DNA of 21,565 nt from a virus, in the UHGV virus genome UHGV-0142951. The stretch is one strand, 5' to 3'. The position numbers were made by a program, and so were the translations under genes. Shown piece after piece: positions 3,317 through 20,807 of the stretch. The notes beneath the pieces were generated by a model that had not been told where the DNA came from, made no database searches, and saw only the letters and a list, made by a program, of their open reading frames with translations. The first letter of the stretch is position 1, and the number at the start of each line of letters is the position of its first letter.

Positions 3317-4728
3317 CCTCGATTAATCCTATCTTTGAACCGTTCATTGAGGCGCATCGCTACAAAGTCGCCAAAGGCGGTCGAGGTAGCGGTAAGTCAT
3401 GGGCAATTGCTAGGCTGCTTGTTGAGGCGGCGCGTCGGCAGCCTGTGCGTATTCTCTGCGCTCGTGAACTGCAAAACAGTATCAGCGATTCGGTAATCCG
3501 GTTGCTTGAAGACACCATAGAGCGGGAAGGGTATTCGGCTGAGTTTGAAATTCAGCGTTCAATGATCCGTCATCTCGGAACGAATGCTGAATTCATGTTC
3601 TACGGCATAAAAAACAACCCTACGAAGATTAAATCGCTCGAAGGCATTGATATCTGCTGGGTGGAAGAAGCGGAAGCGGTAACAAAGGAATCGTGGGATA
3701 TCCTGATACCAACCATCCGCAAGCCGTTTTCCGAAATATGGGTGAGCTTTAACCCGAAGAACATACTCGACGATACCTATCAGCGATTCGTTGTAAATCC
3801 TCCCGATGATATTTGTCTGCTGACGGTGAACTACACCGACAATCCGCATTTTCCTGAAGTTCTCCGTCTGGAGATGGAAGAGTGTAAACGCAGAAACCCG
3901 ACACTGTATCGTCACATCTGGCTTGGTGAGCCAGTAAGCGCAAGTGATATGGCAATCATCAAACGTGAATGGCTTGAAGCCGCAACCGATGCGCACAAGA
4001 AACTCGGATGGAAAGCGAAAGGCGCTGTTGTCTCTGCGCATGACCCATCAGATACAGGGCCAGATGCTAAAGGTTATGCATCGCGTCACGGTTCGGTAGT
4101 TAAGCGCATTGCCGAAGGTCTGCTGATGGATATCAACGAGGGTGCTGACTGGGCAACTTCGCTGGCGATTGAAGACGGCGCTGACCACTACCTGTGGGAT
4201 GGTGATGGTGTTGGTGCTGGGCTACGCAGACAGACAACGGAAGCGTTCTCCGGCAAGAAAATCACCGCCACGATGTTCAAGGGCAGCGAATCGCCATTCG
4301 ATGAAGATGCACCATATCAGGCCGGAGCATGGGCCGATGAAGTCGTACAGGGCGACAACGTTCGCACTATTGGTGATGTGTTCCGCAATAAGCGAGCACA
4401 ATTCTATTACGCGCTGGCTGACAGGCTGTATCTGACATATCGGGCGGTTGTTCACGGTGAGTATGCAGACCCCGACGACATGCTGAGTTTCGACAAAGAA
4501 GCGATAGGCGAGAAGATGCTGGAGAAGCTGTTTGCAGAACTGACGCAGATTCAGCGCAAATTCAATAACAACGGGAAGCTTGAGCTAATGACTAAGGTCG
4601 AAATGAAGCAGAAGCTCGGTATTCCATCTCCTAACCTGGCTGATGCGCTGATGATGTGTATGCATTGCCCGGAGTCGGCTGCGCAACCCGACTATTCCAG
4701 TTACTCAATTCCTTGTGGTGTAGGTTGA
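3313..4728 (+). CDS. Terminase large subunit (ATPase/nuclease)
   Basis: ORF track 3313..4728, 471 aa. Walker A GGRGSGKS near the N-terminus; N-terminal sequence MTSINPIFEPFIEAHRYKVAKGGRGSGKSWA matches recalled Sf6 gp2. Directly follows and overlaps terS. Confidence 0.95.
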   Translation: MTSINPIFEPFIEAHRYKVAKGGRGSGKSWAIARLLVEAARRQPVRILCARELQNSISDSVIRLLEDTIEREGYSAEFEIQRSMIRHLGTNAEFMFYGIKNNPTKIKSLEGIDICWVEEAEAVTKESWDILIPTIRKPFSEIWVSFNPKNILDDTYQRFVVNPPDDICLLTVNYTDNPHFPEVLRLEMEECKRRNPTLYRHIWLGEPVSASDMAIIKREWLEAATDAHKKLGWKAKGAVVSAHDPSDTGPDAKGYASRHGSVVKRIAEGLLMDINEGADWATSLAIEDGADHYLWDGDGVGAGLRRQTTEAFSGKKITATMFKGSESPFDEDAPYQAGAWADEVVQGDNVRTIGDVFRNKRAQFYYALADRLYLTYRAVVHGEYADPDDMLSFDKEAIGEKMLEKLFAELTQIQRKFNNNGKLELMTKVEMKQKLGIPSPNLADALMMCMHCPESAAQPDYSSYSIPCGVG

Positions 4729-4729
4729 T

Positions 4730-6928
4730 ATGGCAGAAAAAAAGATGACTGACTGGCATCGCAAGGTGCTGTGCAACTTTGATAATGCCTGGTCAGCAAC
4801 GCAGGATATGCGTGAGCAGATTATTGAGGCTCAACGTTTCGTCCGGGTGTCCGGCGCACAGTGGGAAGGCAGCACAAACGCTGGTTACTCATTTGATGAA
4901 GGCAGGTTTGAGCATTACCCGCGCTTTGAACTGAATAAGATTGCCCGTGAATGTGATCGCATCATTGGCGAGTATCGACAGAATCGCATCAGCGTTAAAT
5001 TCAGGCCGAAGGATGACAAGGCATCGGAAGCGTTAGCCGAAAAGATGAACGGCAAATTCCGCGCTGATTATCAGGAAACATCCGGTGGCGAAGCGTGTGA
5101 TAACGCATTTGATGATGCTGTAACGGGCGGATTCGGTTGTTTCCGCATGTGTGCTGATTACGAAGATGAAATGGATCCGAGTAACGAGCAACGCCGTATA
5201 AGCCTTCTCCCTGTTTACGACCCAGCGACATGCGTCTTCTTTGATCAGGACAGCAAGCAATATGACCGCTCTGATGCTATGTGGGCTATGGAAATGTTCT
5301 CCATGACGCCTAAAGCGTTCGAGGCTGAATACCCTGATTCCATCGCGGCAAGCCTTTCTCGTGATGACACTGGTACTCAATATGACTGGTCAACTCCTGA
5401 TGCTATCTATGTTGGTCGCTACTACGAAGTTCGCGTAGAGAAGGTGAAGCTCACAGCATGGCGTAACCCTGTTAGCGGAGAAACGGCAATCTATGATGAA
5501 GATCAAATCAAAGATATTGTCGACGAGCTGACCGATGGCGCATTCGAACTGATTGGTGAGCGGACAGTGAAGAAACGCCGAGTTTATTGCGGTCTTCTGT
5601 CTGGCGCTGAATGGCTGGAAGAACCGAAGCGTATTCCGGGCGAACATATTCCTCTCATCCCGGTATATGGGCGTCGTTCATTTGTTGATAATCAGGAGCG
5701 AATCGAAGGCCACGCTGCAAAAGCGATGGATGCACAGCGTCTTGAGAACCTGATGGTTTCCATGATTGCAGATAACGCTACTCAGGCTGGCGGTGATGGC
5801 ATTCCTATCGTGGATGTTGATTTCATTCCCGGTCCATTAATGAATCACTGGGCAGAGAGGAATAAGAAAAGACCTGCAGTTCTTCCCATGACCAGCAAGA
5901 AGGACAAAAACGGAACGGTCATTTCAGAGGCTCAGGTTGCTGGCTGGACACCTCCGACACAAATGCCTCCAGCTCTTGCCGGGCTATTGCAGTACACCGG
6001 AACGGCTATTCAGCAAATTACAGGTGCGTCGCAGCTTGAGAACATGCCGAGCAACGTCGCTACCGATACCGTTGATAGCATCTTTAACCGGATGGACACG
6101 CAGTCCTATATCTACATGGACAACATGGCTAAATCCATGCGCCGTGCTGGCGTCGTGTGGCTTTCTATGGCTCGTGAAGTCTATGGCAGCGATACGCCAA
6201 TGCGCATCGTTAATGAGGATGACAGCGATGACGTGGCGCTGATGACTGGTGAAGTGGTTGACCGTCAGACAGGGCAGGTTATCGCGCTTAACGACCTTTC
6301 GCAGGGTAACTATGAAGTGACTGTCGATGTCGGTCAGTCGTTCGCTACTCGCCGTGATGCAACGGTTAAGTCGTTACTTTCCATGCTGGCACTTATCCCG
6401 CCAGGAACGCCGAAGCATGACCTTGTATCGTCGATGATTCTCGACAATATGGACGGCGAAGGGATGGACGACCTGAAAGAATACAACCGCAATCAGTTGC
6501 TTCTGTCTGGCGTTATCAAGCCGAGAACGCCTGAAGAACAGCAAATGGTTGAGCAGGCGAAACAACAACAGGCCAGTCAGCCAGATCCGGCTATGGTTGC
6601 AGCGCAAGGTCAGCTTCTTGCAGGTCAGGCTGAATTGCAGAAAGCGCAGAACGAACAGGCAGCCATTCAGGTTAAAGCATTCCAGGCACAGACTGATGCT
6701 CAGGTTGCAGCGGCAAACGTTGTGAAAATCCTCGCATCTGCCGATAGCCAGCAGAAATCTGATATCCGCGAGGCTCTGAAACTGCTCGGACAGTTCCAGC
6801 AACAGCAAGGAGACAATGCCCGTGCTGATGCAGAGCTTGTCCTGAAAAGTCAGGCACAGGGTCATGCGCAGCGCATGGACATCAGCAGCATCCTGCAAAA
6901 ATCAACTCAGCAACAACCACAGCAGTAA
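4730..6928 (+). CDS. Portal protein (P22 gp1-like) with C-terminal Gln-rich helical barrel
   Basis: ORF track 4730..6928, 732 aa. Position immediately after terL; length close to P22 portal (about 725 aa); long Q/A-rich helical C-terminus as in the P22 portal barrel. Confidence 0.9.
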   Translation: MAEKKMTDWHRKVLCNFDNAWSATQDMREQIIEAQRFVRVSGAQWEGSTNAGYSFDEGRFEHYPRFELNKIARECDRIIGEYRQNRISVKFRPKDDKASEALAEKMNGKFRADYQETSGGEACDNAFDDAVTGGFGCFRMCADYEDEMDPSNEQRRISLLPVYDPATCVFFDQDSKQYDRSDAMWAMEMFSMTPKAFEAEYPDSIAASLSRDDTGTQYDWSTPDAIYVGRYYEVRVEKVKLTAWRNPVSGETAIYDEDQIKDIVDELTDGAFELIGERTVKKRRVYCGLLSGAEWLEEPKRIPGEHIPLIPVYGRRSFVDNQERIEGHAAKAMDAQRLENLMVSMIADNATQAGGDGIPIVDVDFIPGPLMNHWAERNKKRPAVLPMTSKKDKNGTVISEAQVAGWTPPTQMPPALAGLLQYTGTAIQQITGASQLENMPSNVATDTVDSIFNRMDTQSYIYMDNMAKSMRRAGVVWLSMAREVYGSDTPMRIVNEDDSDDVALMTGEVVDRQTGQVIALNDLSQGNYEVTVDVGQSFATRRDATVKSLLSMLALIPPGTPKHDLVSSMILDNMDGEGMDDLKEYNRNQLLLSGVIKPRTPEEQQMVEQAKQQQASQPDPAMVAAQGQLLAGQAELQKAQNEQAAIQVKAFQAQTDAQVAAANVVKILASADSQQKSDIREALKLLGQFQQQQGDNARADAELVLKSQAQGHAQRMDISSILQKSTQQQPQQ

Positions 6929-7018
6929 TTAACCCATAACGTGCAATGGCTGTCTTTATGAGGCCTGGCACCCTATTGCCTTCCGATGGGCTGAACATCG
7001 AGTAAACAGGGGTAACAA

Positions 7019-7915
7019 ATGGACCAGATGGCAGAAAACACACCAGAAGTTGAAATCGAAACCGACGCGTCAGAGCAGATTCCTGATGATGTCGAACTGG
7101 CTGAAGAAGTCGAAACAGCAGATGGCAGTGAGTCCTCAGGAAATGATGCAGAGGAAGCTACTGACACTGATGACGACGAATCAGAACAGGAATTCTACTT
7201 TGGTGACGAAAAGCTGGATTCGCCAACCAGCGAAGATGGCGCAGAGCATGGACTGGTAAAACACTTGCGCAAGACGATTAAAGAGAAAGACCGTGAGCTG
7301 AAAGAGCTGATGCGTCAGTCTCAGAAACCCGTCGAGCAGCAGCCGGTAATCACTCAACCACCGCGAATGCCAAAACTGGATGATGAGGACATCGGTTTCG
7401 ATGAAGAAATCTATCAGCAACGCATGGCTAAGTGGGCAGAGGATAACGGCAAATACCAGGAGCAAGTACGAGAGCGGAAACGAGAGGAAGAGGCGCGTAC
7501 CGCAACGCTTCAGCAGAAAGCAGCCAATTACATGCATAGAGTAAAAGCACTGAAAGTGGCTGGTTACCAGGATGCAGAGCAGGCTGTACGCGAAGATGTT
7601 CCTGTTCACATTCAGGACATGATCCTTCTTGAGTCAGAGAAGCCGGAAATCGTTGTTCTGGCACTCGGTCGCAACGCTGAACTGCGCAAGCAACTGGCAG
7701 AAGCTACCAACCCCGTAGCAATTGGTCGTCTGCTGGAACGTATCGAATCGAAGGCCAGAATCATGCCAAAAGCAAAAACCACGGCAGCCACAACCCCGAC
7801 AGTTAAGGGGAGCAACGGCGCAGTAATCAATAACCTCGACAAACTTCTCGAAAAAGCGCGCGACACCGGTGATTACACCGAATACCGGGCGGCGAAGAAC
7901 AAAGCTAAAAAATAA
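7019..7915 (+). CDS. Scaffolding protein (P22 gp8-like)
   Basis: ORF track 7019..7915, 298 aa. Highly acidic N-terminus, charged helical middle, basic C-terminal tail (YRAAKNKAKK). Sits between portal and coat; size close to P22 gp8. Confidence 0.8.
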   Translation: MDQMAENTPEVEIETDASEQIPDDVELAEEVETADGSESSGNDAEEATDTDDDESEQEFYFGDEKLDSPTSEDGAEHGLVKHLRKTIKEKDRELKELMRQSQKPVEQQPVITQPPRMPKLDDEDIGFDEEIYQQRMAKWAEDNGKYQEQVRERKREEEARTATLQQKAANYMHRVKALKVAGYQDAEQAVREDVPVHIQDMILLESEKPEIVVLALGRNAELRKQLAEATNPVAIGRLLERIESKARIMPKAKTTAATTPTVKGSNGAVINNLDKLLEKARDTGDYTEYRAAKNKAKK

Positions 7916-7935
7916 TCCATCGGAGCTAAATACCT

Positions 7936-9195
7936 ATGTCTAACCAGTTAACAAAAGACCTCGAAATCCTCTTTGAGAGCGTCATTGATAGTTTTGAGGC
8001 GTCCAATGTCGTTTCCCGCGAGTGCAGCAAGTTCCGACCGGGCGACATTGAAATGCAGCGCGCTGGCGACGTTGTTTATCGCCCTCAGGGCTACCACCTG
8101 AAAACCGTGAGCGGACTTGATCTGACTTCGGCCACTGCAAACTCACTCGTTCAGCGTCAGGTGCCTGCTCGCTTCCGCGAGCCAGAGAACGTCATCTACG
8201 AACTGGACGCAAAAGAAATGCGCGATCCGTGGCACAAAGAGCAGGCTGGCAAGGCGGCGGGTCGCCAGTTGGCGGCGTGGGTTGATAACATGATCGTCGA
8301 TGAGGTGGTCGCTCGCTCCACCAACGTGGTCACCATTAAATCGGCGTCCACCGGTAGCACTCTCGGCGAAGAACTCTGGAACGCATCGGCTGACGTTGAT
8401 GCAATGATGCTGTCCATTGGTGTGCCTCAGGGTGGTCAGCGCAAGGCGTTCTACAACCCGTTCAACTACAAAGACCTGGCTAAGGAGCTTGGCTCTCGCG
8501 CATATGCGGTCGGTGCAACTCTGACAGCCTATGAGAAAGCTCAGATTCCACCTGTGGCATCCTTCGACAGTTTCCGCGTTGATTATGCTGGCGCAATGAA
8601 GGCTGGTTCAGCTACCGCTGTAACTCTCGGCGGCGCAGTAAAACACAAAGTTACCGCGATGGATTCCAACGGCGCGCCTACCGATAACCGCCAGGGTGAC
8701 ATCACCGTATCCACTGCTGGCGTACTGGCTGTCGGCGATGCATTCACTATCGCAGGCGTTAACAGTGTCCACATGATCAAGAAGGTGGATACAGGTAAGC
8801 CGCAGGTATTCCGCGTCCTGGCAGTAAATGGCACTACCGTTACCATCAGCCCGAAAATTCTGCCACCAGACAACGCGGATAAGGCGTCTATTCCTTACCA
8901 GAACGTTACCGCCAATCCGGTGGCAAACGCGGCGATCACCATCCTCAACAAGAAGGCTGCGGCTTCCAACATCTTCTTCGCTGAGGGTTCTGTTGAGCTG
9001 ATGTATGGCAAGTTGGCATTCCCTACCGGCCAGGGTCCGCAGGTTATGACCGCAAGGACCGAGCAGGGTGCGACCATCATCATGGCTTACCAGTTCGACG
9101 CTAAATCTGGCAAAACGTGGACTCGCTTCACCACGCTGGCTGGCGCAAGCGTACTGGTCCCGGAATTCACCGGCCTGGTACTGGCTAACCAGTAA
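7936..9195 (+). CDS. Major capsid (coat) protein (P22 gp5 / Sf6 gp5-like)
   Basis: ORF track 7936..9195, 419 aa. Position after scaffold; size as for P22-like coat proteins; followed by a strong terminator as in P22. Confidence 0.85.
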   Translation: MSNQLTKDLEILFESVIDSFEASNVVSRECSKFRPGDIEMQRAGDVVYRPQGYHLKTVSGLDLTSATANSLVQRQVPARFREPENVIYELDAKEMRDPWHKEQAGKAAGRQLAAWVDNMIVDEVVARSTNVVTIKSASTGSTLGEELWNASADVDAMMLSIGVPQGGQRKAFYNPFNYKDLAKELGSRAYAVGATLTAYEKAQIPPVASFDSFRVDYAGAMKAGSATAVTLGGAVKHKVTAMDSNGAPTDNRQGDITVSTAGVLAVGDAFTIAGVNSVHMIKKVDTGKPQVFRVLAVNGTTVTISPKILPPDNADKASIPYQNVTANPVANAAITILNKKAAASNIFFAEGSVELMYGKLAFPTGQGPQVMTARTEQGATIIMAYQFDAKSGKTWTRFTTLAGASVLVPEFTGLVLANQ

Positions 9196-17037: not shown

Positions 17038-17523
17038 TTATCTAATGTTGCTGCTACTGTTGCATGTGACGGTGTTTCCAAATCCTGAATTGCAGTTTGT
17101 ATATGTGTCAACGCGTGTTGGGTAAGGTTGAGTTATAACAGGCTGGCGCGCTTTTTGCTCGATCGCTTGCATTGTGTTTACAGCCTGATAATTCAATAAA
17201 GCCTGCTGGAATGCTTGGCTTTGCGCTATTTGTTGGGCTTGTTCTTGGCTTTGTAATTGAACATAAAGATTCTGAAGTTCAAGTCTTGCCTGTGTGTCAC
17301 TTATCTTGCCTTCATCGACACCTTGCCCGAGCATCTTCGCAGCAAGGACATACAGCTTAGGTGTTGGTGCTGATGCCATGCGAGAGTCGTTCTTCAAGCT
17401 GGCATCAAGGCAATTAGCCATATCGCTAAGCTTTGGATAGCGTTGCTCGCAACTTGCCTGATAGTCGCTTACTTTTGCGCACCCAGCCAGCAGAAGCGGG
17501 ATAATTAACAGTGATTTTTTCAT
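17038..17523 (-). CDS. Predicted lipoprotein of unknown function, 161 aa (accessory gene)
   Basis: Internal ATG (17521-17523) of track ORF 17038..17574 with AAGGAGAG upstream. Signal peptide MKKSLLIIPLLLAGC with lipobox LLAGC; Gln-rich helical middle; Cys-containing C-terminus. Lower GC than the structural genes (by eye). Confidence 0.7.
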   Translation of the reverse strand: MKKSLLIIPLLLAGCAKVSDYQASCEQRYPKLSDMANCLDASLKNDSRMASAPTPKLYVLAAKMLGQGVDEGKISDTQARLELQNLYVQLQSQEQAQQIAQSQAFQQALLNYQAVNTMQAIEQKARQPVITQPYPTRVDTYTNCNSGFGNTVTCNSSSNIR

Positions 17524-17557
17524 ATAATTAACTCTCCTTAGTTTTGCGCAGGATACC

Positions 17558-17923
17558 ATGAAAAAAGTTAACATTGGAAATGTACCAAAGATGCTAGTAC
17601 CGCTCTTTGAGAGCGGTACAATTGTGTTTTGTAGAGACTTTCCAGAATGGCAACGCCTGCATCAAAAACTTGGCGTTGACGTGCATGACTCGGACGCCAA
17701 CGGAGCGTCTCATACAATGAGTAGCGAGAATGGTGTTTTGCATGTGATAGGCGTGTTCAATGGCAAACTATCTACTATTGCCCATGAGTGCGCTCACATG
17801 GCATTCGATATCTGCTCAAGGGTAGGTGTTGATGTTGAACCAGGAAGAGCCAACGAGACTTACTGCTACTTAATGAGCAGGCTTGTTGAGTTCTGCGAGC
17901 GACATATCAAAAAGCCGGAGTGA
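17558..17923 (+). CDS. Small HExxH zinc-metallopeptidase-like protein, 121 aa (possibly ImmA/IrrE-like)
   Basis: ORF track 17558..17923. Motif STIAHECAHMAF (His76-Glu77-x-x-His80) with candidate third ligand in VEPGRANETY (Glu94/Glu100); the context resembles the recalled ImmA/IrrE signature (..LAHELGH.. / ..E.EAN..). Divergent from the lipoprotein gene, start codons 34 bp apart. Confidence 0.55.
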   Translation: MKKVNIGNVPKMLVPLFESGTIVFCRDFPEWQRLHQKLGVDVHDSDANGASHTMSSENGVLHVIGVFNGKLSTIAHECAHMAFDICSRVGVDVEPGRANETYCYLMSRLVEFCERHIKKPE

Positions 17924-17936: not shown

Positions 17937-18116
17937 TTACTTTTTGCTGTCTGGAGTTCGCTTATCCAATACCCAGCCATGACCTGGCTTTGTTGTTGGT
18001 GGAAGCCTTTCGTTGTCCTTGACGGTTGCAAAATTGTCTTTCTTACCGCCGCGTGGGCCAACTTCTTGGTATATTCCGCCGTTTTTTCCTGTGTTTTCAC
18101 CTGGTTTTTTCGCCAT
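17937..18116 (-). CDS. Small basic Gly/Pro-rich protein, 59 aa (YjzC-like pattern, tentative)
   Basis: Internal ATG (18114-18116) of track ORF 17937..18131 with GAGG 6 nt upstream. Protein MAKKPGENTGKNGGIYQEVGPRGGKKDNFATVKDNERLPPTTKPGHGWVLDKRTPDSKK, no hydrophobic segment. Has its own candidate promoter and terminator. Confidence 0.5.
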   Translation of the reverse strand: MAKKPGENTGKNGGIYQEVGPRGGKKDNFATVKDNERLPPTTKPGHGWVLDKRTPDSKK

Positions 18117-18152
18117 GATATACCTCAACATATACCCGTTATTGGGCGATTA

Positions 18153-18206: not shown

Positions 18207-18231
18207 AACCCACCGTCAGGTGGGTTTTTTT
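18207..18231 (+). terminator. Rho-independent terminator (strong on the + strand, A/T-flanked on both sides)
   Basis: Perfect 8-bp stem AACCCACC (18207-18214) / GGTGGGTT (18219-18226), loop GTCA, then a T7 run (18225-18231). Confidence 0.7.
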
Positions 18232-18263: not shown

Positions 18264-18449
18264 ATGACCATAGAAGAACGTCTGAACAACATTGAGTTGA
18301 ATCAAACCCTGCTTGACCAGCGACTTTCAGATCTTGAGCTTAAAGATCTAGATGTGCAAATATCAGAAGCAGAAGCCAAGCTCTCCAGCTTAAACCACCG
18401 CAGGAAGCAAATCCGCGACAGAATTACTCGTGGACGCGGAGGCTGTTAA
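18264..18449 (+). CDS. Small coiled-coil protein with basic C-terminus, 61 aa, hypothetical
   Basis: ORF track 18264..18449. AAGGA RBS 7 nt upstream. Heptad-like Leu/Ile pattern (IEERLNNIELNQTLLDQRLSDLELKDLDV) then RRKQIRDRITRGRGGC. Confidence 0.45.
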   Translation: MTIEERLNNIELNQTLLDQRLSDLELKDLDVQISEAEAKLSSLNHRRKQIRDRITRGRGGC

Positions 18450-18526
18450 GGTGTGATGGTAATCCTTGCTCACTAAATTTAAGGATGCGAATCTTTCCGG
18501 CCATAGGAGTAATCATGATTTACCCA

Positions 18527-19063
18527 TCAAACAACCCACCAGTTTGCCTGATTGGATACCAGCCTTGCAGTTTTTATGGAATTAATTATGCCATGCTCAA
18601 GAGCCTTGTTAGCATCCAAAATGGTCGAGTCTGCTATCAGGGATGCCCACCTAATATGGGTTCCGATGTCGATATTGAACGTCTCAACGAAGCGATCAAG
18701 ATCGTTATCGAGGCATTTCCCGTACTCTCTCAATCTGGCATGGTCGGCGGCTGGGGAGGCAAAGCACCATAATAGAGGATGTAACAGGAATCTTGATAAT
18801 GGGTTTGCGAAACGTTCTGAGCCAGCCAGGAAAACGATATTAGCTATGGATTCAACATTGCTTATGTTGTGAGTTCTAACGGTAACAGGGAGTGACTTAA
18901 GAAAGTTATACGCAGTAAAGCCAGCGGCAGTTTCCCCTCCCTGACTTGATATATGGATATTTAATTCAGTTGCGCCTTGAGATAATGCGGTGAGACAGTG
19001 GTTCTGAAGTTGCCCAACAGTGGCAGTGTTAACGGGGCATAAGAAATGAATTGTGTGCAGCAT
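18527..19063 (-). CDS. ClpP-fold (S14-like) serine peptidase, 178 aa, translationally coupled to the upstream Mnt-like gene
   Basis: ORF track 18527..19063. Hand alignment to recalled E. coli ClpP: ISSQGGETAAG vs INSPGGVITAG; Ser72 (VESIA) aligns with the ClpP catalytic Ser (GQAASMG); RFANPLSRFLLHP vs RFCLPNSRVMIHQP places His95 at the catalytic His; C-terminal ALEHGIINSI vs AVEYGLVDSI with Asp145/Asp150 nearby. Start ATG overlaps the upstream stop by 1 nt (TAATG). AAGGA RBS lies inside the upstream gene. Confidence 0.65.
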   Translation of the reverse strand: MLHTIHFLCPVNTATVGQLQNHCLTALSQGATELNIHISSQGGETAAGFTAYNFLKSLPVTVRTHNISNVESIANIVFLAGSERFANPLSRFLLHPLLWCFASPAADHARLREYGKCLDNDLDRFVETFNIDIGTHIRWASLIADSTILDANKALEHGIINSIKTARLVSNQANWWVV

Positions 19064-19314
19064 TATTTTTCATCCTTAGCATACATGGTCTTTAGCGTCT
19101 CAACATCGTGTTCAAGATCTATCAATCGTGATGCTATAGTTGCAAGGTCTAGTGCTTGAATGTGTTTATTTTTTTCTGTCCACGCTTCAAGTGCCGCGAC
19201 CATCTCAGCATTTAATGAACGAGAATTAGCCTCAGCCAGTTCAATAAGACGTTCCTTTATCTCTACAGGAAGCCTCAGATTCACTTGAGGGTTTTTGTAC
19301 TTACGATCAGACAT
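19063..19314 (-). CDS. mnt: Mnt-like ribbon-helix-helix repressor, 83 aa
   Basis: Track ORF 19063..19320 begins at a GTG; preferred ATG 19312-19314 with AGGA 7 nt upstream. NPQVNLRLPVEIKERLIELAEANSRSLNAEMV resembles recalled P22 Mnt (DPHFNFRMPMEVREKLKFRAEANGRSMNSELL). C-terminal helix ...VETLKTMYAKDEK. Confidence 0.7.
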   Translation of the reverse strand: MSDRKYKNPQVNLRLPVEIKERLIELAEANSRSLNAEMVAALEAWTEKNKHIQALDLATIASRLIDLEHDVETLKTMYAKDEK

Positions 19315-19331
19315 CGGCACATCCTGAATAA

Positions 19332-19571
19332 TTATTTACCATACATGGTCTTTAGCGTCTCAAGTAGCGCCTCTTTGAATTTATCAGCTTCTTGGTTAGC
19401 GAATCCTTCAAGTGAGCGAGAGCCATCAAGATTATCAACATGTTTTTGAAGGATAAGCACGATCTCTGAGTTCATTGATCTGCCGTTTTTATCCGCTTCT
19501 TGCTGAATGCGTTTCTTTAAATAGTCTGGAATCCTAATCCCCAATGGACTGATATCTCTTGCACCTTTCAT
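19332..19571 (-). CDS. Second RHH repressor paralog, 79 aa (Arc-like N-terminus MKG..., Mnt-like C-terminal extension)
   Basis: Internal ATG (19569-19571) of track ORF 19332..19613 with GGAGGAGAA directly upstream. ISPLGIRIPDYLKKRIQQEADKNGRSMNSEIV is an RHH fold; C-terminus ...LLETLKTMYGK. Occupies the mnt position beside the divergent promoter region. Confidence 0.7.
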   Translation of the reverse strand: MKGARDISPLGIRIPDYLKKRIQQEADKNGRSMNSEIVLILQKHVDNLDGSRSLEGFANQEADKFKEALLETLKTMYGK

Positions 19572-19596
19572 TTCTCCTCCTGCACGCTGTGCATAG

Positions 19597-19666
19597 CTAC
19601 ACAGTGTAGGCAAAAAAATTTTGACTTTAAATAAACACGGTGTAGTATTTAGTTATCACGGTGTAG
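19597..19666. promoter_or_regulatory. Candidate operator cluster in the divergent mnt/arc control region
   Basis: Near-perfect palindrome CTACACAGTGTAG (19597-19609) plus two direct copies of CACGGTGTAG (19636-19645 and 19657-19666) spaced 21 bp apart. Four TGTAG/CTACA half-sites within about 70 bp between divergent RHH genes. Confidence 0.45.
19621..19648 (+). promoter_or_regulatory. Candidate Pant-like sigma70 promoter driving the arc-like and ant genes
   Basis: TTGACT (19621-19626), 16-nt spacer, TAGTAT (19643-19648). Overlapped by the CACGGTGTAG repeats. About 30 nt upstream of the arc-like RBS AAGGGGA. Confidence 0.4.
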
Positions 19667-19679
19667 CAAGCAAGGGGAA

Positions 19680-19820
19680 ATGAAAGTTAGAGACATCGCT
19701 CCATTAGGGATTCGTATCCCGCCAGAGATTAAAGAAAAATTGAAGGAAAAGGCTAAGGAGGAGGGCAGGTCTTTAAATTCAGAAATAGTGCAGCGTCTTA
19801 TTCGCAGCCTAAAAAGTTGA
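19680..19820 (+). CDS. arc: Arc-like ribbon-helix-helix repressor, 46 aa (below the ORF-track size cutoff)
   Basis: ATG 19680 with AAGGGGA upstream; stop TGA 19818-19820. My translation: MKVRDIAPLGIRIPPEIKEKLKEKAKEEGRSLNSEIVQRLIRSLKS, an RHH fold (beta strand then ..GRSLNSEI.. helix) as in recalled P22 Arc. Position immediately upstream of ant as in P22 immI. Confidence 0.7.
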   Translation: MKVRDIAPLGIRIPPEIKEKLKEKAKEEGRSLNSEIVQRLIRSLKS

Positions 19821-19884
19821 AGCCCCAACTGCGGGAACAGTCAGGGCTTCGGTATCGTAAAACCACGCATAGGAATTAACGACA
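19811..19884 (-). ncRNA. Candidate sar-like antisense RNA covering the ant ribosome-binding site
   Basis: Minus-strand promoter-like TTGATT (plus 19913-19918), 17 nt, TACACT (plus 19890-19895) inside the first ant codons. Minus-strand hairpin (7-bp stem 19819-19825 / 19844-19850 with inner 4-bp stem) followed by AAC then a U5 run (plus A-run 19811-19815). Predicted RNA of about 70 nt, complementary to the ant SD and start, analogous to P22 sar. Confidence 0.3.
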
Positions 19885-20807
19885 TGACGAGTGTAGCAAT
19901 TGCAGAACATACAATCAACGTTCCATTCCACGGAACAAATCTCTTTTTGGTCAGCATTAACAATGAACCTTACGTTCCTATGAAACCCGTTGTAGAAGGC
20001 ATGGGTATGGTTTGGGCTGCTCAATTTGTTAAATTAAAACAGAGATTTGTCAAAGGTATTTCGGAAATCGAAATACCTTCTGCTGGCGGTAAACAGTTAA
20101 TGATATGCCTTGCCTTTCGTAAGTTTGCGGCTTGGCTTTCAAGCATTCAGCCAAACAAAGTCCGCCCTGAAATCCGCGACAAGGTAATCCAGTATCAGGA
20201 AGAGTGTGACGATGTGCTCTACGAATACTGGACTAAAGGCCATGTAGTTAACCCGCGCAAAGCTAAAAAGGCATTGCCGGGGAAAATCACCACTGAACAG
20301 CAGGAAGCCATTAAACAACTCGTCATGAGTCGCGGTCAGTCTCTTCCAAAAGAAAAACAGGCTAAGGCGATGATCACCATGTGGTCGTCACTGAAATCCC
20401 ATTTTGGATGTTCGTACAAAGAGATCAGTGAGGAGCAGTTTACCGAAGCACTATCACTTGCAGCTCGAGTTCCACTTGAAGGTGAGTTCATTGGCAAACA
20501 AGAGAAGAAAGCAAACGAGCTTTCTGCAAAAGAAGCAAACAGCCTTGTATGGTTATGGGATTATGCCAACCGCTCACAGGCATTATTCCGCGAACTGTAT
20601 CCGGCGCTAAAACAAATTCAATCGAACTATTCCGGCAGATGTCATGACTGCGGTTATGAGTTCTCCCGTATTATCGATATGGCGAGAGATGTTTTAATCA
20701 ACCATACACGAGATGTTGATATTAATGAGCCAGACGGACCAACGAATCTTTCCGCATGGATGAGACTTAAGAATAAAGAATTACCTCCTTCAGTACATAA
20801 CTACTGA
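19884..20807 (+). CDS. ant: Antirepressor (P22 Ant-like)
   Basis: ORF track 19884..20807, 307 aa. AGGA 8 nt upstream; directly downstream of the arc-like gene and followed by a terminator, as in P22 immI. N-terminal region (VPFHGTNLFLVSINNEPYVPMKPVVEGMGMVWAAQ) is consistent with the P22 antirepressor N-terminal domain as recalled. Confidence 0.65.
   Translation: MTSVAIAEHTINVPFHGTNLFLVSINNEPYVPMKPVVEGMGMVWAAQFVKLKQRFVKGISEIEIPSAGGKQLMICLAFRKFAAWLSSIQPNKVRPEIRDKVIQYQEECDDVLYEYWTKGHVVNPRKAKKALPGKITTEQQEAIKQLVMSRGQSLPKEKQAKAMITMWSSLKSHFGCSYKEISEEQFTEALSLAARVPLEGEFIGKQEKKANELSAKEANSLVWLWDYANRSQALFRELYPALKQIQSNYSGRCHDCGYEFSRIIDMARDVLINHTRDVDINEPDGPTNLSAWMRLKNKELPPSVHNY

Follow-up and report, generated by a model that had tools for sequence, protein, structure and literature searches.

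The closest described relative of the gene considered here – a clpP-like gene in the immunity (immI) region of UHGV-0142951, a P22-like Escherichia coli prophage whose whole 21,565-nucleotide stretch (the window) supplies the positions given below unless another locus or phage is named – is a chromosomal gene of Pseudomonas. Its product, PpClpP1 of Pseudomonas plecoglossicida (PDB 9UXT), was characterised in February 2026 (PLoS Pathog; PMC12900304) and is a divergent ClpP paralogue that lacks more than 15 N-terminal residues and has a Ser73-His96-Pro151 'triad'. It forms a homotetradecamer with an axial pore of 42.7 A, its peptidase activity is ~13-fold below that of the canonical paralogue, and this activity requires the Ser and the His while changes at the third position are tolerated (PMC12900304). 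PpClpP1 does not bind ClpX and alone cuts peptides, not proteins; combined with canonical ClpP it enters a hetero-tetradecamer that binds ClpX and is more active, and deletion of clpP1 from Pseudomonas affects growth and motility (PMC12900304).

The genomic setting also has a described counterpart. In P22 the genes mnt, orf59a and sieA follow one another in this order, and the slot 3′ of mnt holds cargo expressed by the prophage (PMC10883804). The region studied here resembles P22 immI in its leftward mnt, its rightward arc-ant pair, its sar antisense RNA and its operator-like repeats over the rightward promoter; it differs in having two tandem mnt genes and a cargo gene whose translation appears to be coupled to mnt, and whereas the P22 cargo is the inner-membrane protein SieA, the cargo here is a cytoplasmic ClpP-type peptidase.

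Second ClpP subunits are familiar from cellular genomes: P. aeruginosa ClpP2, Listeria ClpP1 and Mycobacterium ClpP1P2 are paralogues that work in mixed rings, and E. coli, the standard organism for ClpXP and ClpAP, is regarded as possessing a single ClpP. Our data show that ~2% of complete E. coli genomes, among them extraintestinal pathogenic (ExPEC) and avian pathogenic (APEC) strains such as S88, carry a ClpP1-type paralogue within a prophage. This is a known type of protein in a new genomic setting and not a new kind of system; the main gain so far is the correction of an annotation, the gene being known publicly as 'ATP-dependent Clp protease proteolytic subunit' or as 'head maturation protease' when its product is neither a head protease nor a canonical ClpP. 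It also raises a testable question, that of a second ClpP subunit in E. coli lysogens.

Identity and active site of the protein

The clpP-like gene (18527..19063, minus strand) encodes an intact 178-residue protein, an N-terminally truncated ClpP paralogue of PpClpP1 type. Pfam CLP_protease (PF00574) matches it with E=2.2e-11 and 44.4 bits against a cutoff of 20.2, residues 24-165 aligning with positions 37-180 of the 182 in the profile; the match begins at profile position 37, and therefore the N-terminal axial part of ClpP is missing, the protein starting at the first core beta-strand. An AlphaFold2 monomer model made with 26 homologues (pLDDT 92.1, pTM 0.87) takes the ClpP fold, and a Foldseek search of the PDB with this model returned 9UXT at the top by a wide margin (E 8e-22, TM 0.93, 38% identity), ordinary solved ClpPs giving TM 0.80-0.83 at ~20% identity. 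A sequence profile of the family behaves in the same manner: it finds 9UXT with E 8.6e-52 over residues 3-179, the best canonical ClpP standing at 4e-13. In a viral structure library the matches were distant ClpP-like proteins alone (TM ~0.8, identity at most 25%). The original prediction, read from the DNA without database searches, had proposed a ClpP-fold Ser/His peptidase without the axial N-terminus, and profile and structure searches alike bear this out. It had also taken the protein and its pairing with a repressor for an undescribed two-component system; here it was mistaken, the protein being of a described type, PpClpP1 (PMC12900304, 9UXT).

The protein is nonetheless not a canonical ClpP. 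Like canonical ClpP (MEROPS S14; E. coli ClpP, 1YG6) it has the same fold (TM ~0.8), Ser and His in the same positions and a match to the same Pfam model; unlike canonical ClpP it shows ~20% identity and is without the catalytic Asp and the axial loops on which ClpX and ClpA dock. The NCBIfam models for ClpP all score far below their cutoffs, TIGR00493 at 19.2 bits against 308.6 and the PRK models at 24-40 against 228-361.

Conservation at the active site was measured across 89 distinct family sequences from fetched loci (38-100% identity). Ser72, His95, Pro96, Trp99, Asp107 and Glu113 show no variation among the 88 sequences that have a residue there, nor does Asp121 in 89 of 89; His108 and Asp119 are nearly invariant (87 each). 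Ser72 and His95 occupy the ClpP catalytic positions, as had been supposed from their context, but the third member of the proposed triad, an 'Asp near 145-150', does not survive the alignment. Reading back gap-free from the conserved Gly158, the residue at the position of canonical ClpP Asp171 is Ser146; across the family this column holds Pro (57 sequences), Glu (12), Ala (11) or Ser (8) and never Asp, and the adjacent Asp145 is not conserved. The family is best described as using a Ser-His pair, consistent with the mutagenesis of PpClpP1.

The phage protein and PpClpP1 have in common a length of ~180 residues, the lack of the N-terminal axial region, the catalytic pair (S72/H95 here, S73/H96 in PpClpP1), a third position that is not Asp, and the residues P96, W99, D107-H108, E113 and D121. 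They differ in which residue stands third (Pro in PpClpP1, Ser146 in the phage protein) and in setting: PpClpP1 is chromosomal and lies in a conserved Pseudomonas neighbourhood, whereas the gene here is borne by a prophage and, by its arrangement, would share a transcript with a phage repressor. E. coli, the host, possesses a single canonical ClpP but lacks a ClpP1-type partner of its own, and the phage protein is known from sequence and model. With the mixed-ring paralogues the likeness is one of concept, that of an accessory ClpP with weak activity or none, which becomes functional when stacked on a canonical ring; their structures 4RYF and 4U0G are among the fold matches at ~20-24% identity, a similarity at the level of the fold, and, unlike the phage protein, these paralogues are cellular, full-length and mostly carry Asp or Asn as third residue.

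The family is sizeable. At E <= 1e-10 it comprises 519 clusters among 1.84 billion representatives, and the top 150 representatives are nearly all single-domain proteins of 180-200 residues, with no informative domain fusion among them that hints at function. Most members are chromosomal in Pseudomonas, within a conserved non-phage neighbourhood of ClsB-like, EEP-family, DUF72-like, permease-like and small KGG-repeat proteins encoded on mixed strands (names assigned from sequence, with no profile search). An informative operon partner among these was considered and rejected, the mixed-strand neighbours suggesting no mechanism. Our search of the literature found no described phage-borne ClpP paired with mnt and nothing relevant on WP_000903306, and although the protein type was described in 2026, its phage-borne members and their placement behind mnt are absent from the literature searched.

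Position and distribution of the gene

Upstream of the clpP-like gene lies mnt2 (19063..19314, minus strand), which encodes an 83-residue Mnt-like ribbon-helix-helix (RHH) repressor. The ATG of the clpP-like gene (19063..19061) and the TAA stop of mnt2 have one base in common (TAATG); the junction reads ...GAAAAATAATGCTG, and AAGGA, 10-14 nucleotides 5′ of the ATG, places the ribosome-binding site in the last codons of mnt2. This layout, and with it the coupling of a peptidase to a Mnt-like RHH gene in immI, is as originally predicted. The prediction of a single Mnt-like gene falls short, however, for there are two in tandem: mnt1 (19332..19571, minus strand; 79 residues) is the first gene of the leftward operon and is separated from mnt2 by a gap of 17 nucleotides that includes AGGA. 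The start of mnt2 is an ATG at 19314, with an alternative GTG at 19320 that would give 85 residues. By gene order the clpP-like gene is the distal (third) member of a leftward mnt unit – mnt1, mnt2, clpP-like – and the TAATG overlap indicates that its translation is coupled to that of mnt2. On its 3′ side the first terminator-like site on the minus strand is a bidirectional hairpin at 18207..18226 (a pattern match).

Two short sequences appear to mark the edges of the insert. At the 3′ end of mnt2 stands a 28-nucleotide repeat (19076..19103) whose second copy (19336..19363), at the 3′ end of mnt1, is identical at 27 of the 28 positions, and in the CUS-3 record this same place at mnt bears the annotation 'boundary sequence'. 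Most E. coli matches stop at window position 19103 (query position 577), the end of this repeat, and because most E. coli homology to the clpP-like gene stops there the repeat is likely a recombination boundary. Most related prophages have a single mnt, and the tandem arrangement looks like a product of recombination at the 'boundary' sequence. At the other edge, just downstream of the clpP-like gene, a 30-residue open reading frame (18424..18516, minus strand) ends ...SHLNSLRVHE. In other E. coli prophages the clpP-like slot, after a near-identical mnt (~98% nucleotide identity over the matched part), holds instead a 69-residue gene that when intact ends ...SHLNSFRVPE; the frame at 18424..18516 is, to judge from this common C-terminal peptide, the 3′ remnant of that gene and the left edge of the clpP-like insert. 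One intact copy of the 69-residue gene (locus L094, 2797..3006) likewise overlaps mnt at stop and start. Nothing in the base composition of the clpP-like region points to an atypical island.

The gene is present, at a coverage of at least 80%, in 126 of 5426 complete E. coli genomes (2.3%); all copies are chromosomal, and every context inspected lies inside a prophage. Among 23 sampled E. coli matches that contain it, the match continues into an Arc-family gene in 22. What lies directly upstream is not constant: different Mnt alleles precede the clpP-like gene (mnt2 of the window, an 82-residue S88 type, a Pectobacterium type and a Providencia type), and at one locus (L142) the upstream mnt is a mosaic with the N-terminus of P22 Mnt, beside a P22-type Arc. 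Nor is the location of the cassette constant. A five-gene cassette (clpP-like, mnt2, mnt1, arc and ant) at 99.7% identity is found between the lambdoid tail genes L and K, and phages PhiR12_1, PhiR12_4 and PhiR12_5 carry a one-mnt cassette at this same site. The L-K cassettes span 3501-5781 in E. coli MS 196-1 (L093) and 4023-6035 in PhiR12_1 (L001), an unusual site for an immunity and antirepressor module.

Linkage to mnt was surveyed in two collections with a narrow RHH detector, a hidden Markov model built from three Arc/Mnt sequences. Across 80 IMG/VR loci a Mnt-like gene stands directly upstream in 46 of 46 full-length copies of at least 94% identity and in one copy at 79%; the one-nucleotide overlap recurs at 43 loci by automated count and, by inspection, at L142, while at L147 a read-through mnt2-like frame overlaps the clpP-like start instead, and two copies are truncated. 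At 74% identity or less this detector found an Arc/Mnt-like neighbour beside none of 33 IMG/VR copies, and beside none of the best 80 of 142 loci in species-representative genomes, mostly Pseudomonas at ~40% identity.

The arrangement behind mnt extends past E. coli. P22-like Pectobacterium prophages have the mnt-to-clpP order with an overlapping start (79% identity), between gene 16 and arc/ant, and P22-like prophages from Providencia-type hosts have it in the same interval at 66% and 62% identity, with a gap of 30-36 nucleotides between the two genes. Elsewhere the gene stands alone on the opposite strand, in Leclercia (74% identity), Serratia (72%), Citrobacter/Klebsiella (56-57%), Proteus (54%) and Chromobacterium (58%), at sites between lysis cassette and terS, between N and early-left genes, or between tail-fibre and lysis genes. 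The relatives at 72-74% sit in the interval from the lysis cassette to the terminase genes, far from immI, and in a neighbour-joining tree they fall in the same clade as the immI-linked copies, which are not monophyletic. In simple scans one lone Klebsiella copy is preceded by a promoter-like site (10/12) and followed directly by a terminator-like hairpin. In Klebsiella prophages L004 and L006 (4100-4735) the lone gene divergently adjoins a PF18894 'PhageMetallopep' gene.

Unrelated prophages carry copies of the family at a variety of sites between modules, in many cases on the opposite strand, and these are exchangeable with other cargo, as befits a moron. Read from these arrangements, the clpP-like gene is a portable piece of cargo, joined to mnt at a short conserved sequence, and we place it in the sieA slot of immI as cargo that can be exchanged. 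Because close relatives stand alone at moron sites, and because most of the family is chromosomal in Pseudomonas, the two genes are not an obligate RHH-protease pair.

Possible roles in the lysogen

What, then, might a prophage do with a truncated ClpP? We consider it reasonably probable that the gene is portable immI cargo encoding a truncated, PpClpP1-type ClpP that is expressed in the lysogen and serves there as an accessory ClpP subunit. Under this account recombination at the short conserved 3′-terminal sequence of mnt would have put the gene into the slot that holds orf59a and sieA in P22. As the last gene of the mnt operon, with its translation coupled, it would be produced together with Mnt, which means in the lysogen. 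By analogy with PpClpP1 the product may form a ClpP-type barrel – a 14-mer with a wide pore, a mixed 14-mer with the host's single ClpP, or both – and so might act as an accessory peptidase that alters Clp-dependent proteolysis. Candidate benefits include a steadier lysogeny, interference with incoming phage and host fitness. If mixed rings with host ClpP do form, a core proteolytic machine would not be the same in lysogens as in non-lysogens, and phage regulators, stress responses and the action of ClpP-targeting drugs could all be affected.

Several observations weigh against this account. Expression in the lysogen is argued from the position of the gene and from analogy with P22 Pmnt; promoter scans found no consensus leftward promoter 5′ of mnt1, and simple promoter and terminator scans returned nothing convincing for the lone Leclercia and Proteus copies. 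With 38% identity to PpClpP1, and Ser in place of Pro at the third position, the oligomer, its activity and its co-assembly with E. coli ClpP are extrapolated. Moreover, three genera retain the mnt-to-clpP order, with identity as low as 62%, and the cassette travels whole, in one block: such persistence could mean a functional tie to immI closer than the word 'cargo' implies.

This last point invites the view that the peptidase is a dedicated part of immI, removing leaky Ant, or trimming Mnt, Arc or the prophage repressor, as a protein-level backup to the circuit. The order common to P22-like phages of E. coli, Pectobacterium and Providencia (62-79% identity in the latter two), its retention behind several Mnt alleles, the unbroken linkage among the closest IMG/VR copies with their overlapping starts, and the passage of the cassette from clpP through ant, intact, into lambdoid prophages all speak in its favour. 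Yet relatives of the same clade live alone and far from any immI, an Arc/Mnt-like neighbour was found at none of the 80 species-representative loci, and physical linkage through a boundary for recombination in the 3′ end of mnt explains the co-occurrence with no functional tie; PpClpP1, moreover, alone cuts peptides and not proteins and cannot dock ClpX (PMC12900304). Recurrent linkage in P22-like phages argues somewhat for a role in immI, and lone copies of the same clade argue against it; on balance we hold such a role to be unlikely.

A related proposition combines a role in immI with co-assembly: a ClpP1-type second subunit that joins host ClpP and retunes ClpXP and ClpAP within the circuit that maintains immunity. 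Retuned in this manner, ClpXP or ClpAP might clear leaked antirepressor or destabilise proteins of a superinfecting phage, and the phage would then encode a protein that modifies the chief compartmentalised protease of its host. We judge this, too, to be improbable.

Alternatively, the prophage might make the peptidase as an effector of superinfection exclusion or anti-phage defence, in a niche like that of sieA. The position of the gene is that of the P22 orf59a/sieA slot 3′ of mnt (PMC10883804), lone copies sit at moron sites, and the occurrence in E. coli – a small fraction of genomes, always chromosomal and in a prophage wherever inspected – would suit such a function. Against it stands the character of the family, mostly chromosomal in a non-phage neighbourhood of Pseudomonas, where deleting the gene has effects on growth and motility (PMC12900304); the gene is accompanied by no sensor or partner, and PADLOC-DB v2 gave no match at E <= 1 for the peptidase, nor for the two Mnt-like proteins. 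The proposition is accordingly one to which we attach a low probability.

It is far less credible that mnt2 encodes an RHH antitoxin that neutralises a protease toxin, as the original prediction had allowed. A small RHH gene does precede and overlap a larger enzyme gene, and the Mnt-like proteins have weak matches to RHH families of FitA, RelB and HicB type besides Arc. But these proteins are Mnt homologues encoded opposite arc, sar and ant, the upstream Mnt allele is exchangeable, the Providencia genes are 30-36 nucleotides apart, and in most contexts – by the narrow detector, all 80 genome loci and all 33 viral loci at or below 74% identity – the peptidase has no RHH neighbour. The RHH partner is therefore dispensable to the family, and this survey of contexts makes the toxin-antitoxin reading very unlikely.

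The head-maturation (prohead) protease named in some phage records, such as that of phiv205-1, is barely conceivable and is contradicted by score and position: the ClpP fold, the Ser and His, and weak to moderate profile matches are those of head-maturation proteases (NF045542; PHROG 94), and the best PHROG is indeed phrog_94 'head maturation protease' (E 7e-21), but NCBIfam Clp_rel_HeadMat (NF045542) reaches 49.3 bits where its cutoff is 120, the gene belongs to immI, runs opposite to the head genes and is neither fused nor adjacent to those for scaffold or capsid, the head module (4730..9195) holds portal, scaffold and coat only, and the closest relative by Foldseek is a ClpP paralogue from the Pseudomonas chromosome. 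Heads of P22 type are assembled with a scaffold, and a phage of this type needs no prohead protease; with P22 scaffold and coat both in the window, the original prediction was right to set this identity aside.

The remainder of immI and neighbouring genes

Both Mnt-like proteins match Pfam Arc (mnt2 product, E=3e-10; mnt1 product, E 6e-8), and each has P22 Mnt (1MNT) as its best solved relative, at E 3e-5 for the mnt2 product and, in a full-length alignment, at E 4.6e-5 for that of mnt1; between themselves the two are 34% identical. Rightward of them follow arc (19680..19820, plus strand; 46 residues; Pfam Arc, E 5e-13) and the antirepressor gene ant (19884..20807, plus strand; 307 residues; P22_AR_N, E 7e-40, and P22_AR_C, E 1e-27). 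The antisense RNA sar (19815..19882, minus strand; Rfam RF00262, 84.6 bits where the gathering score is 43) spans the arc-ant junction, with a strong hairpin and T-run at 19850-19819, and because it is present there the immI region is of full P22 type.

Between mnt1 and arc lies a divergent control region (19572..19679), whose elements are pattern matches. A perfect 13-bp palindrome, CTACACAGTGTAG, stands at 19597-19609, just 5′ of mnt1. A rightward promoter-like site, TTGACT (19621-19626) and TAGTAT (19643-19648), is overlapped at its -10 and start region by two copies of CACGGTGTAG (19636-19645 and 19657-19666) spaced 21 nucleotides apart, one of which runs into TAGTAT; the site is of ant type. 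By analogy with Pant and Pmnt of P22 these elements would be operator-like and promoter-like in function.

What remains of the window is taken up by virion genes of P22-like kind: terminase, P22 portal, scaffold, P22 coat, gp10, gp7 and gp20. Four small genes lie near the 3′ side of the clpP-like gene. Between gene 16 and immI, opposite to the virion genes, a 162-residue predicted lipoprotein (17038..17526, minus strand; signal peptide ending LLAGC; phrog_6067, E 3e-109) is a candidate for lysogenic conversion. The 121-residue protein encoded at 17558..17923 (plus strand; phrog_1365) has an HExxH motif (HECAH) and no Pfam match, and may be a small metallopeptidase-like protein. A conserved phage frame of 64 residues (17937..18131, minus strand; phrog_3202) has a weak YjzC-like match and, by phmmer, no match to the KGG proteins beside the Pseudomonas genes. 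Finally, a 61-residue protein is encoded at 18264..18449 (plus strand; phrog_7586), and RefSeq gives the name 'hemolysin XhlA family' to the homologue that takes this position in another prophage.

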